Shown one piece after another: positions 53,990 through 63,764 of a DNA stretch of 64,000 bases; position 1 is the first letter of the stretch, and the number at the start of each line of letters is the position of its first letter. The DNA lies in NCBI GenBank assembly GCA_016187335.1, contig JACPJW010000001.1, positions 832,001 to 896,000 on the forward strand. The letters are read 5' to 3'. The notes beneath the pieces were generated by a model. The model had not been told where the DNA came from, searched no databases, and was given only the letters and a program-made list of their open reading frames with translations. Both the position numbers and the translations under genes were made by a program. The stretch is from Candidatus Aenigmatarchaeota archaeon. GTDB taxonomy: Archaea > Aenigmatarchaeota > Aenigmatarchaeia > GW2011-AR5.

Positions 53990-56098
53990 ATGGCAAAAGA
54001 CGTAATATGCGGCATGTACGTTGACGAGAAGACGCCGTTCAGGGCGGAGCAGGACGGCGTAAAGTATTACTTCTGCAGCCAGAAGTGCCTTGACACGTTT
54101 TTGCAGCCGCAGGTTGAGATGAGAAAGCTGAAATACCTGACGGTGTTCGCTTTGACTTTCGGCTTCCTTACCGCGTTCTTTGAATATTTCTACCCTGTGT
54201 CGCCTTTCGGCCTGCCTAACTACGTTCTATTGTTTCTGTTAGCCACGCCGGTCCAGTTCGTAGCCGGCTGGCGCTTCTACCAGGGCGCGCGCGACGCTGT
54301 AAAGGCAAAGCAGGCGAACATGGACCTTCTCATTGCCATAGGCACGAGCGCCGCGTGGATTTACTCAACGCTGTACACATTCCAGGGCATTTTGTGGCCA
54401 AGGTTCCTGCCGTCAGTGTCAGCAGGAACGGAGGTTTATTTCACGGAATCCGGGCTCATTATTGGCTTCATCCTTCTCGGAAAATACATGGAGCACATCG
54501 TTAAAGGAAGGGCGTCGCGGGCAATAAGCCGCCTGATTGACTTGCAGCCCAGGATGGCAACAGTTGTCAGAAAGGGAAAGGAAATTCAGGTGCCCGTAGA
54601 GCAGGTGAAAGTCGGAGATGTTATCATCGTAAAGCCCGGCGAGAAAATACCCGTTGACGGGCTGGTTGTTGACGGCTATTCTTCCGTTGACCAGTCAATG
54701 ATAACCGGAGAAAGCATTCCTGTGGAAAAAAAGAAAGGCGACGAGGTAATCGGTGCGACCATAAACAAAACGGGCTTGCTGAAAGTAAAAGCGACTAAGG
54801 TGGGAAGCGACACAACGCTGTCGCAGATAGTCAAGATGGTCCAGGAAGCGATTGTCTCAAGGACGCCGATGCAGCGCCTGGCCGACGTTGTTTCGTCTTA
54901 TTTCGTGCCTGCTGTGGTGCTCATAGCCGTATCTTCCTTCCTGTTCTGGTATTACATAGCTGGCCTGGAGTTCTCTTTGGCATTCACGATGCTCATCGCC
55001 GTGCTGATTATCGCATGCCCTTGCGCCCTGGGCATTGCCACGCCCGCTGCAATAATGATAGGCGCGGGCAAGGGCGCGCAATACGGTATCCTGATAAAAA
55101 GCGGCGAGTATCTCGAAAAGGCGAGAAAGATTAACGTTATTGTTTTTGACAAGACGGGAACGCTGACAAGGGGTGAACCGTCAGTAACAGACGTGATGCC
55201 AATAAGCGGCAGCGACAAGGATGTTCTCCGGTACGCAGCGATAGCTGAGAAAGGCTCGGAGCATCCGCTTGGTGAAGCGATCGTCCGCGCTGCGCAGGAA
55301 AAAAGAATAAAAATACCTTCTGCAGGCAGATTCCGCGCAATTCCTGGTCACGGCGTGGAAGCTTCCTATCAGGGAAAGAAAATCCTGCTGGGGAACAGGA
55401 AATTAATGGGAAAGAGCAAGATAAAGATTGGGAGCGAGGAAAAAATTCAGCAGCTTGAAAATGAGGGAAAAACCGTCATGCTTCTGGCAGTCAATAAAAA
55501 ACTTCTCGGCATGATTGCTGTCGCCGACACGCTGAAGGAAGAATCAGCGGAAACCGTGGAGAAGCTTCATAGTATGAACATTGAGACTGTCATGATAACC
55601 GGCGACAACCCCAGGACAGCTGATGCCATAGCATCAAAGTTAGGAATAAAGCGCGTGCTTGCGGAAGTGCTGCCGCAGGACAAGGCAAAAGAAATAAAAA
55701 AGCTGCAAAAAGAAGGTAAGATAGTTGCTATGGTCGGCGACGGCATAAACGACGCGCCCGCGCTTGCGCAGGCTGATGTCGGCATCGCCGTAGGCGCGGG
55801 AACGGACGTTGCAAAGGAAACCGGCGGCATAATATTGATCAAGAACGACCTCCGCGACGTTGTGTTCAGCATTGAATTGAGCAGGAAAACCGTGAGGAAG
55901 ATAAAGGAGAATCTTTTCTGGGCGTTCTTCTATAACATCGCCCTCATCCCGGTTGCCGCCGGTGCCCTGTATCCTTTCGGGATACTGCTTAATCCTGTTT
56001 ACGCCGCGATAGCGATGGCGCTCAGCTCCGTCACGGTCGTCGGCAACTCCATGCTGCTGAACCTGTACAATCCGAAAAAAGGTGATGCGCATCAATGA
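53990..56098 (+). CDS. copA: P1B-1 Cu(I)-exporting ATPase with N-terminal YHS domain
   Basis: [39 protein letters not shown] and MALSS. Confidence 0.97.
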
Positions 56099-57236
56099 GA
56101 AAAAAGTGGCTTCATTTATCATAGCCATACTCATACTGTCAATTTTGGCGATAATCATATTGTCCGTGTCAATGGCATGGTTCTTTTTCAAGTCGCCGCC
56201 AAAGACCGGCGGGATTTCCGAGAATGTCCTGAAATCTTCAATGAAAGGGATGATGGGCTACGCATCGCCTGATGACATTCCAATTAGGACTCCGCATGAC
56301 AGGACACCGTTAAGCTTTAATGAGAAAGACGGCGTCAAAGAATTCCGTCTTTCTGCGGAGCCTATAAGATGGGAATACGCGAACGGCTATTACGTGACAG
56401 CATGGGGGTTCAACGGCCAGGTGCCGGGACCGGAGATACGCGTTTCAGAAGGCGACAGGGTGAGAATAATTTTCACGAATAACCTTCCAAAGGCAACAGC
56501 AGTCCACTGGCACGGCGTAAACGTCCCTAACGGCATGGATGGCGTTCCCGGCGTTACGCAGGAAGCTGTAAAGCCCAATGAAACTTTCGTTTACGAATTC
56601 ACAGCAGAACCAAAAGGCACAAGATACTACCATGCCCACGGCTCGTCGCACATGGACGAGGCCCAGCAGCTTGACATGGGATTGTACGGCGCATTCATAA
56701 TAGAGCCAAGCAACTTTTCAGAAAAGTTGCATCAAAACGGTAAATACGACAAGGAATTTACGCTGCTGCTTGACGAATGGGAAATCATGCCCGATGGAAC
56801 AAACGCTGCCATGCTGCCAGGAATGCATTCAATGGACCATAACGTTTTTACCATAAACGGAAGAGCTTTTCCCGACACGGAGCCGCTCAATGTCGCGGAA
56901 GGAGATAAGGTTCTTGTGAGAATAATAAACGCCGGCTCGTCAACGGCACATCCCATGCACTTGCACGGGCATTCCTTCAAAATTGTTGCCGTTGACGGGA
57001 ATCCCGTGCAGGCGGGGGCGCAGATTGTGAGGGACACCCTGCCTGTGAGCCCGGGAGAGCGATATGATATAGAAATCACGGCCGGCAATCCCGGAACATG
57101 GATATTCCACTGCCACGAGCTTCATCATGCGGACGGCGGGATGATAATACCTTTTATGTATGAAGGGTATGATAACATAAGCAGGCCGCCATCCCAAAAA
57201 GTGCCGGGCTTGGGGCACGAAATGCACGGAGGATAA
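56082..57236 (+). CDS. Two-domain multicopper oxidase, membrane-anchored
   Basis: [30 protein letters not shown]. Confidence 0.93.
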
Positions 57237-57237
57237 A

Positions 57238-57735
57238 ATGTTAAGCAACATTTCATTGAGCAGGAAAAACATCGGCGCGATAATCATAGTCATATCGCTT
57301 TTCATCTTCGTGCTTTCATACCTCTACATGGACACCGTGAAAAAGCTGGATGCGCAGCTCCACAAGGACTGCGACCTGCCTGACGAGATATGCCCGTTCA
57401 AGAAGAACATACCGCCCGAAGCTGCGGCGGGCTTCGCCGTTTCAGCCGTTACAGGCTTGTTCGGCGCTTTCGTTTATTTTTCCTCTCCCAAAAACGAAAA
57501 GGAAGTCGCGGAAAAATTAAGCAGGAGCAAAGAAATTCTCTCAAGGCTTGACATCGACGAAAAGAAAATCTACGGCATGATAGCAGAAAGCGGCTCAGTG
57601 TTCCAGAGCGAGCTTGTTGAGAAGAGCGGCATGAGCAAGGTGAAGATAACGCGATTATTGGATAGATTAGAGTCAAAAGGCGTCGTGGAAAGGAAGAGAA
57701 GGGGCATGACGAACATAGTCATGGTGAAGCAGTAA
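57238..57735 (+). CDS. 2-TM protein with HxxCxxxxxxCP loop and C-terminal wHTH
   Basis: LHKDCDLPDEICPF; QSELVEKSGMSKVKITRLLDRLESKG. Confidence 0.85.
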   Translation: MLSNISLSRKNIGAIIIVISLFIFVLSYLYMDTVKKLDAQLHKDCDLPDEICPFKKNIPPEAAAGFAVSAVTGLFGAFVYFSSPKNEKEVAEKLSRSKEILSRLDIDEKKIYGMIAESGSVFQSELVEKSGMSKVKITRLLDRLESKGVVERKRRGMTNIVMVKQ

Positions 57736-59831: not shown

Positions 59832-59847
59832 GATGAAACTAGTTTCA
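59832..59847 (-). repeat. Loop-less copy of REP-like element
   Basis: Minus strand TGAAACT-AGTTTCATC. Confidence 0.45.
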
Positions 59848-59885: not shown

Positions 59886-60620
59886 ATGAACGAAAAGGAA
59901 AACGGCAACAAAGAAAAGCGCGGGGAAGTCGTAAACCTGAGCATCCCGCTGGAAACAATAACCATCGTCCTGGCAGTTGCCCTGGTCATCGTGGTTGTCT
60001 ACAACCAGCTGGCAATCAACGAGCTCGGCTACCTTGCGGCTGCGGTCGGCGCGTCGCCGGAAAACCAGAACGCCGCTCAAAGCGCTGTATTAAGCAGCAT
60101 TGACGTGACTCCGAAAGGCGTTCCGGCGGTGTACGGAGCGGAACTCGGAATAAGCTACGATGACGTGAGCGCAGGCAATCCCCAGAAAGCCGATGCAACG
60201 ATACAAAAATTAGCGGCATATGACACAAGCATAGAGCTTGATGCGCAGCAGCTTGAGCGGTACGTGAAAATTGCAGGCCAGATATCCTGCGAGTACTGCT
60301 GCGGGGCCGACTCAATTATCTTCACGAAGGATTCAGGACAGTACAAGAAGGGCGACGCGGCATGCGGCTGCGCGCACAGCTACGCGATGAGGGGCTTGGC
60401 GAAATACCTGATAACGCAGCACGGTGACGAATTCACGGACGACCAGATACTCGAGGAACTGGGCAAGTGGAAGACGCTGTTCTTCCCTGACATCCTGGCA
60501 CAGAAAGCTGCAGTGCTCCAGGATAAAGGAATAGAGCTTAACTACGTGAACCTTGCCTCCAACAAGTACAGGAACATAGAAGCGGGAACTGACGGAGGCG
60601 GAATGGTAGGAGGTTGCTGA
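59886..60620 (+). CDS. Single-TM Cys-rich protein ending in MVGGC
   Basis: CEYCC, CGCAHS, terminal GGGMVGGC. Confidence 0.85.
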   Translation: MNEKENGNKEKRGEVVNLSIPLETITIVLAVALVIVVVYNQLAINELGYLAAAVGASPENQNAAQSAVLSSIDVTPKGVPAVYGAELGISYDDVSAGNPQKADATIQKLAAYDTSIELDAQQLERYVKIAGQISCEYCCGADSIIFTKDSGQYKKGDAACGCAHSYAMRGLAKYLITQHGDEFTDDQILEELGKWKTLFFPDILAQKAAVLQDKGIELNYVNLASNKYRNIEAGTDGGGMVGGC

Positions 60621-60624
60621 ATTT

Positions 60625-60658
60625 GAAACTTTGCTTCTCCAAAGTTTCATCAAAAGAG
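60625..60658 (+). repeat. REP-like hairpin element
   Basis: GAAACTTTG-CTTCTC-CAAAGTTTC-ATCAAAAGAG. Confidence 0.75.
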
Positions 60659-60673
60659 ACTAGTGGTGAATAA

Positions 60674-60865
60674 ATGAACGTAAATATCTTGTTTGCAGTA
60701 TTCATGGCTGTCCTGCTTGTGCTGTCCGTGTTCCAGACGATGCAGATAACAAGCATAAAGAGCGAGCTGAAAACAAAAATATCTGCCTCGCCGTCTGCCG
60801 CATCAAGCAGTCAAAGCCAGGGAAGCACGGGCTCCAGCAGCTCCGGAATGGTCGGTGGGTGCTGA
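60674..60865 (+). CDS. Small TM + Ser-rich linker protein ending in MVGGC
   Basis: 63 aa; terminal SSGMVGGC. Confidence 0.8.
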   Translation: MNVNILFAVFMAVLLVLSVFQTMQITSIKSELKTKISASPSAASSSQSQGSTGSSSSGMVGGC

Positions 60866-61799: not shown

Positions 61800-61868
61800 A
61801 GCAAAATTAAGCAAAGCGGTAAAAAACGCGCTGCAGTGCTGCTACGAGGAGTGAACAAACTTTTCAAA

Positions 61869-62267
61869 ATGGTGATAAAATTCATGAAGAAGATATACCT
61901 TGCACTTGCTGTATTTCTGGTCGCCGCGCTTGTCGCAGGAGTTGTCATAGCATTTCCCAATAAAAATGCGGTTCCGGCGTATGCAACAAGGCATCCCCTG
62001 ATAAAGGAAGCCTACATGTTTTCAGTGGACAGCCCCGAAGCACTTGACGGCGTGAACTGCTACTGCGGCTGCATGCACCACCCTCATGACGGGCGCATTC
62101 ATGCCCGCGGGCTGCTTGACTGCTTCAGGACAGCAGACGGCGGCTTTGACCGGCACGCGAGTGAGTGCGACATGTGCATCAAGGATGCACTAGAGGTCAA
62201 GCAGATGACCCAGCAGGGAAAATCACGCGATGAAATAAGAAGCTACATAGACGGAAAATACGCCTGA
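61869..62267 (+). CDS. PCYCGC-motif protein
   Basis: NCYCGCMHH, LLDCF, HASECDMC; N-terminal anchor. Confidence 0.85.
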   Translation: MVIKFMKKIYLALAVFLVAALVAGVVIAFPNKNAVPAYATRHPLIKEAYMFSVDSPEALDGVNCYCGCMHHPHDGRIHARGLLDCFRTADGGFDRHASECDMCIKDALEVKQMTQQGKSRDEIRSYIDGKYA

Positions 62268-62417: not shown

Positions 62418-62885
62418 ATGATTGTTATGAAAAAAACGGGGAAAAAGAACGGCAAAAGTATCTTTGGTTGGCTGGGTTCAGCTTCAGGAAGCGGCGCGAT
62501 AGCGGGCGCCCACAACGTATGCCATGCCCTGTGCCAGGGCTTGGTTCTTTTCTTGGCGCTGTTCGGGATAGCCGTCTCGTCAACCGCCCTCATGTTTCTG
62601 GAGGACTACGCGGTGTATTTCTGGTCAATGGGACTGTTTTTCCTTTTAATCTCGGCGTATTTTTTTGCTGTCAGGAAACAGGGCTCGCAAAAGCTGCTGC
62701 TCGCGAACTCGGGAATACTTTTGGCAGGAATACCTTTCAGGCAGTTCGAGGCATTTTCGGCGGCTTTTCTTGCCGCGGGCGGGGCGATGATAGCTTTCAG
62801 TGTTTTCCTTTATTTGAACGAAAGAAATTTTCTTGTATTTGGAAATAGGAACAATGGAGGGCGTAAGAATGGCAAAAGTGGCTAA
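62418..62885 (+). CDS. Membrane protein with HxxCHxxC motif
   Basis: AHNVCHALCQ followed by about 4 TMs. Confidence 0.75.
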   Translation: MIVMKKTGKKNGKSIFGWLGSASGSGAIAGAHNVCHALCQGLVLFLALFGIAVSSTALMFLEDYAVYFWSMGLFFLLISAYFFAVRKQGSQKLLLANSGILLAGIPFRQFEAFSAAFLAAGGAMIAFSVFLYLNERNFLVFGNRNNGGRKNGKSG

Positions 62886-63146: not shown

Positions 63147-63764
63147 ATGAAAATGAAAAAAGCCGCATATATTGCCGCAGGGCTTATTCTTGTTGCTATA
63201 ATCTACCTTGCATTCTTCACCAAGCCTTCCTATGAGCCGGGAGAGATGGAAGAGCACATCAGGGGAAACCACAACGCTCCCATTGTCATCGTGGAGTTCA
63301 GCGACTTCCAGTGCCCTTACTGCAGGGCCGTGCAGCCGGCGCTCAACCAGCTGCTAACGGAATACCCCGATGATGTCAAGCTGATTTACCGGCATTTCCC
63401 GCTGCCTTCGCACCAGTACGCCATGAAAGCCGCGGAAGCCTCGGAATGCGCAGCCAACCAGGGAAAGTTCTGGGAATATCACGACATGCTTTTCCAGAAT
63501 CAGGAGCGGCTTGACGTAAATTCGCTGAAAAGTTACGCAAAGCAACTTGGATTAAACACGACCTCTTTCAATGCGTGCCTTGACAGCGGAGCAATGCAGC
63601 AACGCATAGAAATAATCGTAAAGAACGGCGCGGAGAAAGGCGTTACAGGGACGCCGACATTCCTGATAAACGACAAAATGCTGTCAGGCAACCAGCCCTA
63701 CAGCGTGTTCAAAACATCTGTGGACGAAGAGCTGAAAAAATTAAATGAAACCCGGCGAGTCTAA
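63147..63764 (+). CDS. DsbA family thiol-disulfide oxidoreductase
   Basis: EFSDFQCPYC, YRHFPL, GVTGTPTF; N-terminal anchor. Confidence 0.95.
   Translation: MKMKKAAYIAAGLILVAIIYLAFFTKPSYEPGEMEEHIRGNHNAPIVIVEFSDFQCPYCRAVQPALNQLLTEYPDDVKLIYRHFPLPSHQYAMKAAEASECAANQGKFWEYHDMLFQNQERLDVNSLKSYAKQLGLNTTSFNACLDSGAMQQRIEIIVKNGAEKGVTGTPTFLINDKMLSGNQPYSVFKTSVDEELKKLNETRRV

Follow-up and report, generated by a model that had tools for sequence, protein, structure and literature searches.

Why should two adjacent genes in a small archaeal genome encode proteins with the same last residues? The question arises from a 64,000-nucleotide (nt) stretch of a Candidatus Aenigmatarchaeota archaeon (C2:832001-896000; genome 1.01 Mb, 47% G+C, 90.8% complete), which at its full length is called the window here. 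A 244-residue membrane-anchored protein with an invariant CEYCC motif (the CEYCC protein) and, just downstream, a 63-residue mini-protein both end in GMVGGC directly before the stop codon, with codons that differ at three synonymous sites, just as the initial annotation had read them from the window. That annotation proposed a functional C-terminal tag on two unrelated neighbours. From the sequence comparisons reported here, the best explanation appears to be that MVGGC-COOH is a conserved, portable cysteine arm and part of a three-part extracytoplasmic module in DPANN archaea and at least one bacterium of the candidate phyla radiation (CPR). We class the system, whose families are undescribed, among the envelope metal/thiol relays that use a carrier arm.

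Two tailed proteins with a common anchor

The CEYCC protein consists of a basic N-terminus, an N-in transmembrane (TM) anchor, an extracytoplasmic helical domain, a short Gly linker and the terminal MVGGC (...GTDGGGMVGGC-TGA; last residues ...EAGTDGGGMVGGC). Its core holds the motifs ISCEYCCG and ACGCAHS, with invariant C135-E-Y-C138-C139-G and C160-G-C162-A-H164-S, and is referred to as the Cys5His core. The mini-protein ends ...SSSSGMVGGC-TGA, and three of the four degenerate tail codons differ between the two genes (Table 1). A Shine-Dalgarno-like GGTGA lies 5 nt 5' of the mini start. At its other end, the mini gene shares nucleotides of its stop codon with the GTG start of the gene that follows, which encodes a membrane protein with an A-H-C-P-L-C motif (the AHCPLC protein). 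In the family alignment of the mini-proteins (A3), MVGGC is invariant and Q21 near-invariant; the minis were surveyed through the loci introduced below, and a word-based homologue search with the 63-residue mini gave only one candidate, probably owing to the low complexity of the sequence.

Profile-profile comparison of A3 with the alignment of the CEYCC family (A1) aligned the N-terminal anchors with 93% probability and an E-value of 3e-7, over the TM helix and a juxtamembrane Q/N-x-x-Q-I-x-x-L motif. Since this anchor is common to both, the two neighbours are not unrelated, contrary to what had been annotated at first; judged from these profiles, the mini is the large protein minus its core, and the anchors are homologous. 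The description of the small protein as anchor, tether and tag agrees well with A3 and with the shared anchor. As for the flexible linker ascribed to both proteins, that of the CEYCC protein is short and not fully disordered, with predicted local distance difference test (pLDDT) values of 74-83 for residues 231-244 in the AlphaFold2 (AF2) model.

Conservation of the tail and its codon usage

MVGGC ends 3 of the 18,863 stop-to-stop open reading frames (ORFs) of the genome, the third of which (C2:675494-675736) belongs to a paralogous locus (L001:7516..7737, ...NLPSMVGGC). When the DNA pattern for MVGGC-stop was scanned across 371 genomes of the phylum, matches were found in 62 genomes (104 matches listed, one of them ending in TGG and not in a stop), typically paired 200-700 nt apart on the same strand, against a single match for the reversed pattern that served as control. 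The tail occurs far beyond chance, and its enrichment in other genomes agrees with the tag reading of the initial annotation. Homologues of the 244-residue protein number 2103 at an E-value of 0.001 or better; the best 120, in which the tail ends were scored, comprised 113 MVGGC, two MIGGC, one QVGGC and one MVGGG ending, while three stopped before the tail. A survey of 80 related CEYCC loci from GTDB species genomes (L001-L080, where L001 is G000:C2:668000-684000, the second locus of the genome that contains the window) yielded 159 GGC-ended ORFs, MVGGC being the ending in 152. The stop codons after these tails are mixed (TAA 89, TGA 41, TAG 29), so that selenocysteine read-through of TGA, giving a Cys-Sec pair like the GCUG of thioredoxin reductase, was rejected.

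At the codon level, 157 tails fell into 78 distinct 15-mers in which all synonymous codons occur, and at least one codon difference was present in 61 of 64 within-locus tail pairs. These observations argue, in agreement with the initial annotation, for selection on the peptide as the main force, together with a little codon bias or short-tract copying: within a locus, 1.72 of 4 degenerate codons are in common, compared with 1.33 of 4 for shuffled pairs. Variant tails match within their locus, as seen for MAGAC/MAGAC in L050 (identical DNA) and for QVGGC/QVGGC in L037 (identical DNA) and in L039 (two synonymous differences). The identical variant DNA in L050 and L037 indicates that short tracts are sometimes copied from one tail to the other.

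Tail variants, separated tails and fusions

Among 310 representative clusters of distant relatives, obtained by an exhaustive profile search, the tails read ..LPxQVGGC, ..MPNMVGSC, ..WVG(D/E)C, ..MAGGC, ..QQGGC and others, with a relaxed motif (L/M)Px[MQW]VG[GSADE]C. Cys is last in nearly all complete sequences, and 1-4 extra residues follow it in a few. The terminal Cys is the constant position and Gly at -2 is nearly so, while Met can be replaced by Q, W, F or I. Free substitution of the terminal Cys was not seen: even at this distance, it is the least substitutable position, as would be expected of the tag first proposed. One tailed sequence, P0261, is annotated by NCBI as Candidatus Magasanikbacteria, a CPR bacterium, and ends ..APDMVGGC.

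Near the CEYCC gene, five types of tail-bearing protein were distinguished, namely the CEYCC protein itself and four types of mini: the plain Ser/Ala-linker type of the window, a type with ..GWTxxEKMxYE(H/M)HG(T/I)(L/I)PAR.. (e.g., ..MYEHHGTLPAR..), a type with ..GETYxEMMARMHPDQ.. or ..DPMAGHH.., and a type that ends ..NLPxMVGGC. Several of them carry Met/His motifs of the copper-site kind shortly before the tail. The CEYCC gene is tail-less in eight loci, all of which have an adjacent tailed mini, and only one locus has the tail on the CEYCC protein alone.

Fusions join the same parts in other ways. A 457-residue protein of the second locus combines a membrane domain containing AICPVCQG with a tail-less CDYCC...CGCAH domain (hhalign probability 99.7% to A1), and is followed by a Met-rich protein (..MMGSDMMSGNMMRSMMMG) and then by an LPSMVGGC mini; a weak alignment (E-value 0.0025 over 22 columns) links its CPVC segment to the AHCPLC segment in the alignment of the AHCPLC family (A2). 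P0261 carries on a single chain a membrane domain with CPVC, a domain with CEFCC...CGCAH, and the MVGGC tail. Besides, P0277-P0285 and P0208 are secreted FKBP-type prolyl isomerases fused to the CEYCC domain, all of which end ..LQEMPNMVGGC. The CEYCC domain is present in 58 of the 61 genomes with a true tail pattern, and also in 19 genomes lacking the exact ATG-type pattern, which probably carry variant tails; these phyletic counts include related genomes and are therefore non-independent samples.

Both the fusions and the loci where a tail-less CEYCC gene retains its tailed mini suggest that the partners of the arm are the Cys5His core and a membrane CPxC site, reached either in cis or in trans. 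Because the loci with the tail in trans, the fusions in L001 and P0261, the matching variants and the phyletic coupling all point in the same direction, we propose that the arm, the Cys5His domain and the membrane CPxC site form one three-part module.

Weak CEYCC-like ORFs were also noticed after tailed minis at L036:5736-6317 and L055:10867-11478. They end ..AGSCSA and ..AGSCNV, with Cys three residues from the end, which is possibly a degenerate or alternative arm.

A cassette with a presumed operator and regulator

Across the 80 loci, the gene order is a membrane-bound helix-turn-helix (HTH) regulator (64 loci, usually directly 5' of the CEYCC gene), the CEYCC gene (80), one or two tailed minis (75 with a tailed mini directly 3'), the AHCPLC gene (60, right after the mini) and a gene for a cytoplasmic protein of the 141-residue type (47). 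Often a VCHxLC membrane protein, a ..EHMxHHPDxY.. protein and a CopA-type ATPase come next, and in some loci the head of the cassette is instead a divergent BlaI/CopY-like and BlaR-like pair.

The palindrome upstream of the CEYCC gene (Table 1) is unique in the window at 0 mismatches, and its core GAAACNNGTTTC has 61 matches in the 80 loci, where about one is expected; nearly all of them lie shortly before the CEYCC gene. The palindrome is probably the operator of the membrane-bound HTH regulator. The outside loop of this regulator contains Cys, His and Met, and its relatives read C..F(H/Q)...LDM..CP(A/V)H. The protein resembles a one-component sensor for metal or redox state that is bound to the membrane, and is presumed to be the sensor-regulator of the cassette.

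Between the CEYCC stop and the mini start there is an inverted repeat, TGAAACTTTG-CTTCTC-CAAAGTTTCA (60624-60649), with outer half-sites identical to those of the operator and 14 nt apart. It was rejected as a meaningful hairpin, as the fold (-10.9 kcal/mol, z -1.14) is not significant and the spacing is not conserved in other loci.

The AHCPLC family conserves only H-C-P-L-C and PFQG, with two conserved cysteines (C25 and C28). In nearly all members, a signal-peptide-like segment ending A-x-A precedes H-C-P-L-C-T; cleavage by signal peptidase at this point would make His-Cys the start of the mature protein and may create an amino-terminal metal site. Relatives of the 141-residue protein, seen in loci L007-L080, mostly end ...(V/I)DCCKE(W), an ending that is missing from the window copy and its closest relatives. 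This DCCKE ending is a second conserved C-terminal Cys motif, on the cytoplasmic side.

Copper and thiol genes around the cassette

The cassette of the window is embedded in an island (Table 1). It starts with a Cu(I) ATPase and a multicopper oxidase, continues with the regulator, the cassette itself and proteins of the PCYCGC and DsbA-like kinds, and reaches as far as a small membrane protein at the edge of the window. The closest relatives of the window proteins are from Aenigmarchaeota and other DPANN archaea. The ATPase carries the P1B-1 motifs (CPC at 343, DKTGT at 387, FFYN at 648 and MALSS at 676), and a CopA relative is found in 37 of the 80 loci. Other frequent neighbours are a DsbD_2(CcdA-like)-cupredoxin protein (41 loci), CopG/DUF411 (24 loci), and thioredoxin (Trx)-repeat and DsbA-like proteins. 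The VCHALC and EHMGHHPDQY genes overlap by 53 nt in the window and are a single fused ORF in L004, L013 and L021; the two proteins are probably one functional unit.

Table 1. Positions of the genes and sequence elements in the window
Feature	Position	Strand	Remarks
P1B-1 type Cu(I)-exporting ATPase with N-terminal YHS domain	53990..56098	+	Pfam E1-E2_ATPase, Hydrolase, YHS
Multicopper oxidase with N-terminal TM anchor	56082..57236	+	Pfam Cu-oxidase_3/_2
Membrane-bound winged-helix regulator	57238..57735	+	Pfam DUF7343/MarR/TrmB; TM, outside loop HKDCDLPDEICPF, TM, TrmB/MarR-like HTH
Perfect 14-bp palindrome TGAAACTAGTTTCA	59834..59847	.	39 nt upstream of CEYCC start; presumed operator
CEYCC protein, 244 residues	59886..60620	+	ORF; 2103 homologues; A1; AF2 model with pLDDT 88
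CEYCC tail codons ATG GTA GGA GGT TGC, then TGA	60603..60617	+	
Mini-protein, 63 residues	60674..60865	+	TM anchor, juxtamembrane Q-x-x-Q-I, Ser-rich linker, terminal MVGGC
Mini tail codons ATG GTC GGT GGG TGC, then TGA	60848..60862	+	
AHCPLC membrane protein, 172 residues	60859..61377	+	Signal-peptide-like N-terminus, A-H-C-P-L-C-T, further TM helices, PFQG motif
Cytoplasmic helical protein, 141 residues	61374..61799	+	LEEH and GELWCSSKH motifs; after AHCPLC gene in 47 of 80 loci
PCYCGC/CYCXC-family anchored protein	61836..62267	+	PF13798 E 2.9e-13; NF041379 66.7 bits, below cut-off
VCHALC membrane protein	62418..62885	+	Cluster in 52 of 80 loci; VCHNLC paralogue in second locus
Anchored protein with C...EHMGHHPDQY..C, 92 residues	62833..63111	+	Related to MMARMHPDQ-type tailed minis, no tail
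Anchored DsbA-like thioredoxin-fold protein (CPYC)	63147..63764	+	Pfam Thioredoxin_4/DSBA

The second locus (L001 5559-11939) is a paralogous copper/thiol locus of the same genome, which also holds a three-Trx-repeat protein with a C-terminal cupredoxin, a VCHNLC membrane protein and, on the opposite strand, a CcdA-like protein. A further architecture recurs in such islands (L001:12613-13299, L036:7662-8396 and L064:12588-13049): anchored proteins whose N-terminus forms a cytoplasmic C2H2-type zinc finger (..C.EC.K.F......L.QH....H..), followed by a TM helix and an outside domain, which is DsbA-like by Pfam in L036.

Family searches, fold comparisons and other readings of the arm

Searches of the CEYCC, mini, AHCPLC and 141-residue proteins against Pfam, NCBIfam and PDB sequences gave no match, and full-text literature searches on the motif, on PCYCGC and on copper or cysteine in DPANN found no description of the tail. 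The four families are without a Pfam or NCBIfam model and without a description in the literature searched. With the AF2 models of the CEYCC and AHCPLC proteins, Foldseek against the PDB returned nothing at an E-value of 0.001 or better.

The CEYCC model is all-helical. The only VIA-align row above Z 5 was the periplasmic domain of CcmH (2hl7_A; Z 6.0, root-mean-square deviation 3.0, 76 of 82 residues, model residues 112-228), where Z below 8 may reflect a common helical arrangement; the next rows reached Z 4.2 or less. A structure search of the ESM Atlas, which was based on a different model, listed a PF03918 cluster with a template modelling (TM) score of 0.44 and also a CPR rhodanese-domain cluster (386 residues) with a score of 0.57 over residues 33-243. 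PF03918 had no match among 40 CEYCC family members at E-values up to 10, hhalign of A1 against the N-domain of E. coli CcmH was not significant (probability 0.7%, E 0.076), and PF03918 was absent from the search of the genome, which is 90.8% complete; the neighbours of the cassette are copper and thiol genes, not ccm genes.

The resemblance to CcmH brings in the main alternative, which we regard as possible though less likely than the reading favoured below, namely that the arm belongs to a thiol-disulfide relay, its terminal Cys shuttling through transient mixed disulfides between the membrane CPxC site, the CxxC of the CEYCC core and outside clients. Such a relay might keep the Cys ligands of cuproproteins reduced or repair copper-induced disulfides, as in DsbD-ScsC, TlpA-Sco and CcmG-CcmH. 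It is consistent with the CcmH and PF03918 hits, with the hhalign placement, itself not significant, of ISCEYCCG on LRCPKCQN of E. coli CcmH, with the position of CPLC at a helix N-terminus in the AHCPLC model, as in redox CxxC proteins, and with DsbA, Trx-repeat and DsbD_2/CcdA proteins as frequent neighbours and FKBP as a fusion partner. Yet a Z of 6 is within chance helical arrangements according to VIA-align's own notes, significant Pfam or profile similarity to CcmH is lacking, the five Cys and the His of the core as well as the His/Met motifs of the minis exceed what a dithiol relay needs, and the tightest linkage is to CopA and a copper-type regulon. Moreover, a lone Cys cannot cycle by itself. 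By analogy with the Scs and TlpA-Sco systems, a copper arm and a relay may also be combined.

The Atlas hit to a rhodanese-domain cluster, together with the resemblance of the Gly-Gly-Cys arm to the GGCGG arm that is generally known from SoxY, leads to a second alternative. Here the terminal Cys would be a SoxY-type covalent carrier that bears a persulfide or another sulfur adduct into partner sites, for precipitating and detoxifying copper as sulfide or for handing sulfane sulfur to another acceptor. We consider this highly improbable: no rhodanese or Sox gene lies in the window's cassette or among the scanned frequent neighbour clusters, and the CPR homologue that was read has no rhodanese domain. 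The tail ends at Cys and not in GGCGG, the model is all-helical, and no Sox family match was obtained among the cassette proteins. Two more known families were compared. Neither the PCYCGC (PF13798) nor the CYCXC (NF041379) model matched the CEYCC protein, whose hhalign alignment with the PCYCGC protein of the window was not significant (E 0.016 over 21 columns); nor did any cassette protein have an HMA match of the kind expected for CopZ, the ATPase having a YHS domain instead.

Six helices make up the AF2 model of the AHCPLC protein (pLDDT 89), the second of which begins with H24-C25-P-L-C28. VIA-align placed ICMT on top (5vg9_A, Z 7.4, chain residues 2-122 only, i.e., the N-terminal helices), followed by rows at Z 6.6 and 6.4; ZnT/SLC30 rows were at Z 4.7-6.6, and no row stands out from the background. 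Pfam gave no match to ICMT. Compared with DsbB/VKOR, the protein has only two conserved Cys and no Pfam match.

The tail might alternatively be a modification or sorting signal, with an enzyme, possibly the AHCPLC protein, that lipidates, methylates, cross-links or otherwise processes the terminal Cys to give a second anchor or envelope link. V-G-G-C and the upstream LP are kept beyond what chelation needs, and V-G-G-C is loosely like a lipobox (PMC12462473). The gene next to the tails encodes a small conserved membrane protein in 60 of the 80 loci, and the top structural row of that protein is the N-terminal TM part of ICMT. We nevertheless judge this reading to be improbable. A lipobox, [LVI][ASTVI][GAS]C, works at the end of an N-terminal signal peptide (PMC12462473), whereas the tail motif follows a polar linker, closes the chain at its C-terminus and has Gly at -2. 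The ICMT match covers non-catalytic helices only and is close to the next rows, and the AHCPLC family conserves nothing beyond its two motifs. Furthermore, the tailed proteins are already TM-anchored, and no residues follow the Cys that could be cleaved off. The archaeal lipoprotein enzymes AliA and AliB are Lgt-like with conserved arginines (PMC12462473); an AliA/AliB-like identity of the AHCPLC protein was set aside for lack of evident likeness, by the published description only.

A copper-carrying arm as the favoured reading

The reading that we favour, tentatively and at a little under an even chance, is a Cu(I) thiolate swinging arm. The module would consist of a flexible tail whose last residue supplies the thiol and which the shared N-terminal anchor tethers to the membrane, of the helical Cys5His domain (CxYCC...CGCAH), and of a membrane protein whose CPxC site faces outward, presumably the AHCPLC protein in the window. 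The arm may be carried by the Cys5His protein, by a mini made of anchor, linker and arm only, or by both. The terminal thiolate would take up Cu(I) at the membrane surface, delivered by the CopA-type exporter encoded nearby or by the His/Met capture motifs before the tail in many minis, and swing it to the Cys5His cluster and/or the membrane CPxC site, where it could serve sequestration, oxidation by the multicopper oxidase or CopG, or the loading of cupredoxins. The membrane-bound HTH sensor would switch the cassette by acting on the conserved palindrome.

Copper is the best-supported cargo: the genes linked to the cassette include those for a Cu(I) exporter, a multicopper oxidase, cupredoxins and CopG, Met/His motifs precede the arm in many minis, and the outside loop of the regulator and the core are both rich in Cys, His and Met. 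In addition, a set of five clustered Cys and a His, arranged as CxxCC and CxC, is closer to polynuclear Cu(I)-thiolate sites than to an ordinary dithiol oxidoreductase. What the comparisons show is that the tail is conserved and portable, that the genes are linked, that fusions exist, that the surroundings are rich in copper genes and that the palindrome is conserved; we infer copper as the cargo, and likewise the direction of transfer and a physical contact between the parts. The Met/Cys copper arm of the initial annotation fits the copper/thiol island, but not as a strict Met/Cys site: with Q, W, F or I in its place in distant relatives, Met is no obligatory ligand, and such a site is not required.

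Several other points weigh against a copper arm as well. The conserved V-G-G and, in distant relatives, the upstream LP suggest that the tail docks in the groove of a partner and does not simply chelate. An arm with one Cys makes a weak Cu(I) site by itself, which a second arm or a partner would have to complete. The one fold that the core resembles, CcmH at Z 6.0, is a thiol-disulfide oxidoreductase, thiol-redox neighbours (DsbA, Trx repeats, DsbD_2/CcdA) are as rich as copper genes, and the FKBP prolyl isomerase fusions point to protein folding or maturation. The three roles initially put forward for the tail look alike at the level of sequence, whether it is a Cu(I) arm, part of a DsbA-type thiol relay or a signal for modification.

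A wider reading can also be considered, which we hold to be conceivable though somewhat unlikely. The arm, the Cys5His domain, the CPxC membrane protein and the cytoplasmic Cys/His protein would then constitute a new kind of trans-envelope relay that only ultra-small archaea and CPR bacteria have, and within it the tethered peptide would be a covalent or coordinate carrier that moves copper or reducing power between surface and cytoplasm through the small CPxC protein, under its own sensor-regulator. In such a relay, the tethered peptide arm would be the envelope counterpart of the ACP, lipoyl and SoxY arms.

Significance and comparison with known systems

Hundreds of DPANN and CPR organisms with tiny genomes keep a multi-gene cassette with a presumed operator and membrane-bound regulator of its own, and a strictly C-terminal Cys on a tethered flexible arm is a simple and portable device. 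If the arm carries Cu(I) or electrons, it would represent a new solution to envelope copper/thiol homeostasis in cells without a periplasm. If our reading is true, it would also provide a clear sequence rule, in the form of an anchor, a linker and a ...VGGC-COOH end, by which to annotate the thousands of small 'hypothetical' proteins often overlooked by gene callers, and the system is small enough for a direct test by expression in a model archaeon or bacterium.

SoxY is alike in having a Gly-Gly-preceded Cys at or near the C-terminus of a flexible arm, which offers its thiol to several extracytoplasmic partner sites. It is, however, a soluble beta-sandwich with a SoxZ partner, sulfur adducts and a GGCGG end, whereas the MVGGC arm ends exactly at Cys, sits on membrane-tethered proteins that are helical or consist of a linker only, and is found in a copper context with no sox genes in the cassette. 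With CcmH/NrfF (PF03918; PDB 2HL7), the best structural match of its core, the CEYCC protein may share a small helical extracytoplasmic domain and a CxxC after the first helix, but the CEYCC core has three extra Cys, a His, the terminal arm and other partners, and no significant sequence or profile similarity.

Among copper systems, CopZ/Atx1 and the HMA domains of P1B ATPases, as well as CusF-CopA, likewise place one short motif on a small carrier and on a larger partner beside a Cu(I) ATPase; by analogy, a motif repeated in this manner suggests transfer by ligand exchange. In contrast to these, MVGGC offers a single terminal Cys and not MxCxxC on a ferredoxin-like fold, and it is extracellular and tethered, with no HMA. 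The PCYCGC/CYCXC proteins, one of which is encoded in the same operon, are also anchored and extracytoplasmic and have a CxCxC-type cluster followed by a His, but they are without the terminal arm, and the CEYCC protein falls outside their family model. Lastly, the Scs (ScsB-ScsC) and TlpA-Sco/PcuC systems combine DsbD/CcdA-like, thioredoxin-fold and copper proteins to handle Cu(I) and reduced cysteines in a comparable way, whereas the CEYCC, mini, AHCPLC and 141-residue families are not among their components, and the terminal-Cys arm is a feature of the cassette that they do not have.

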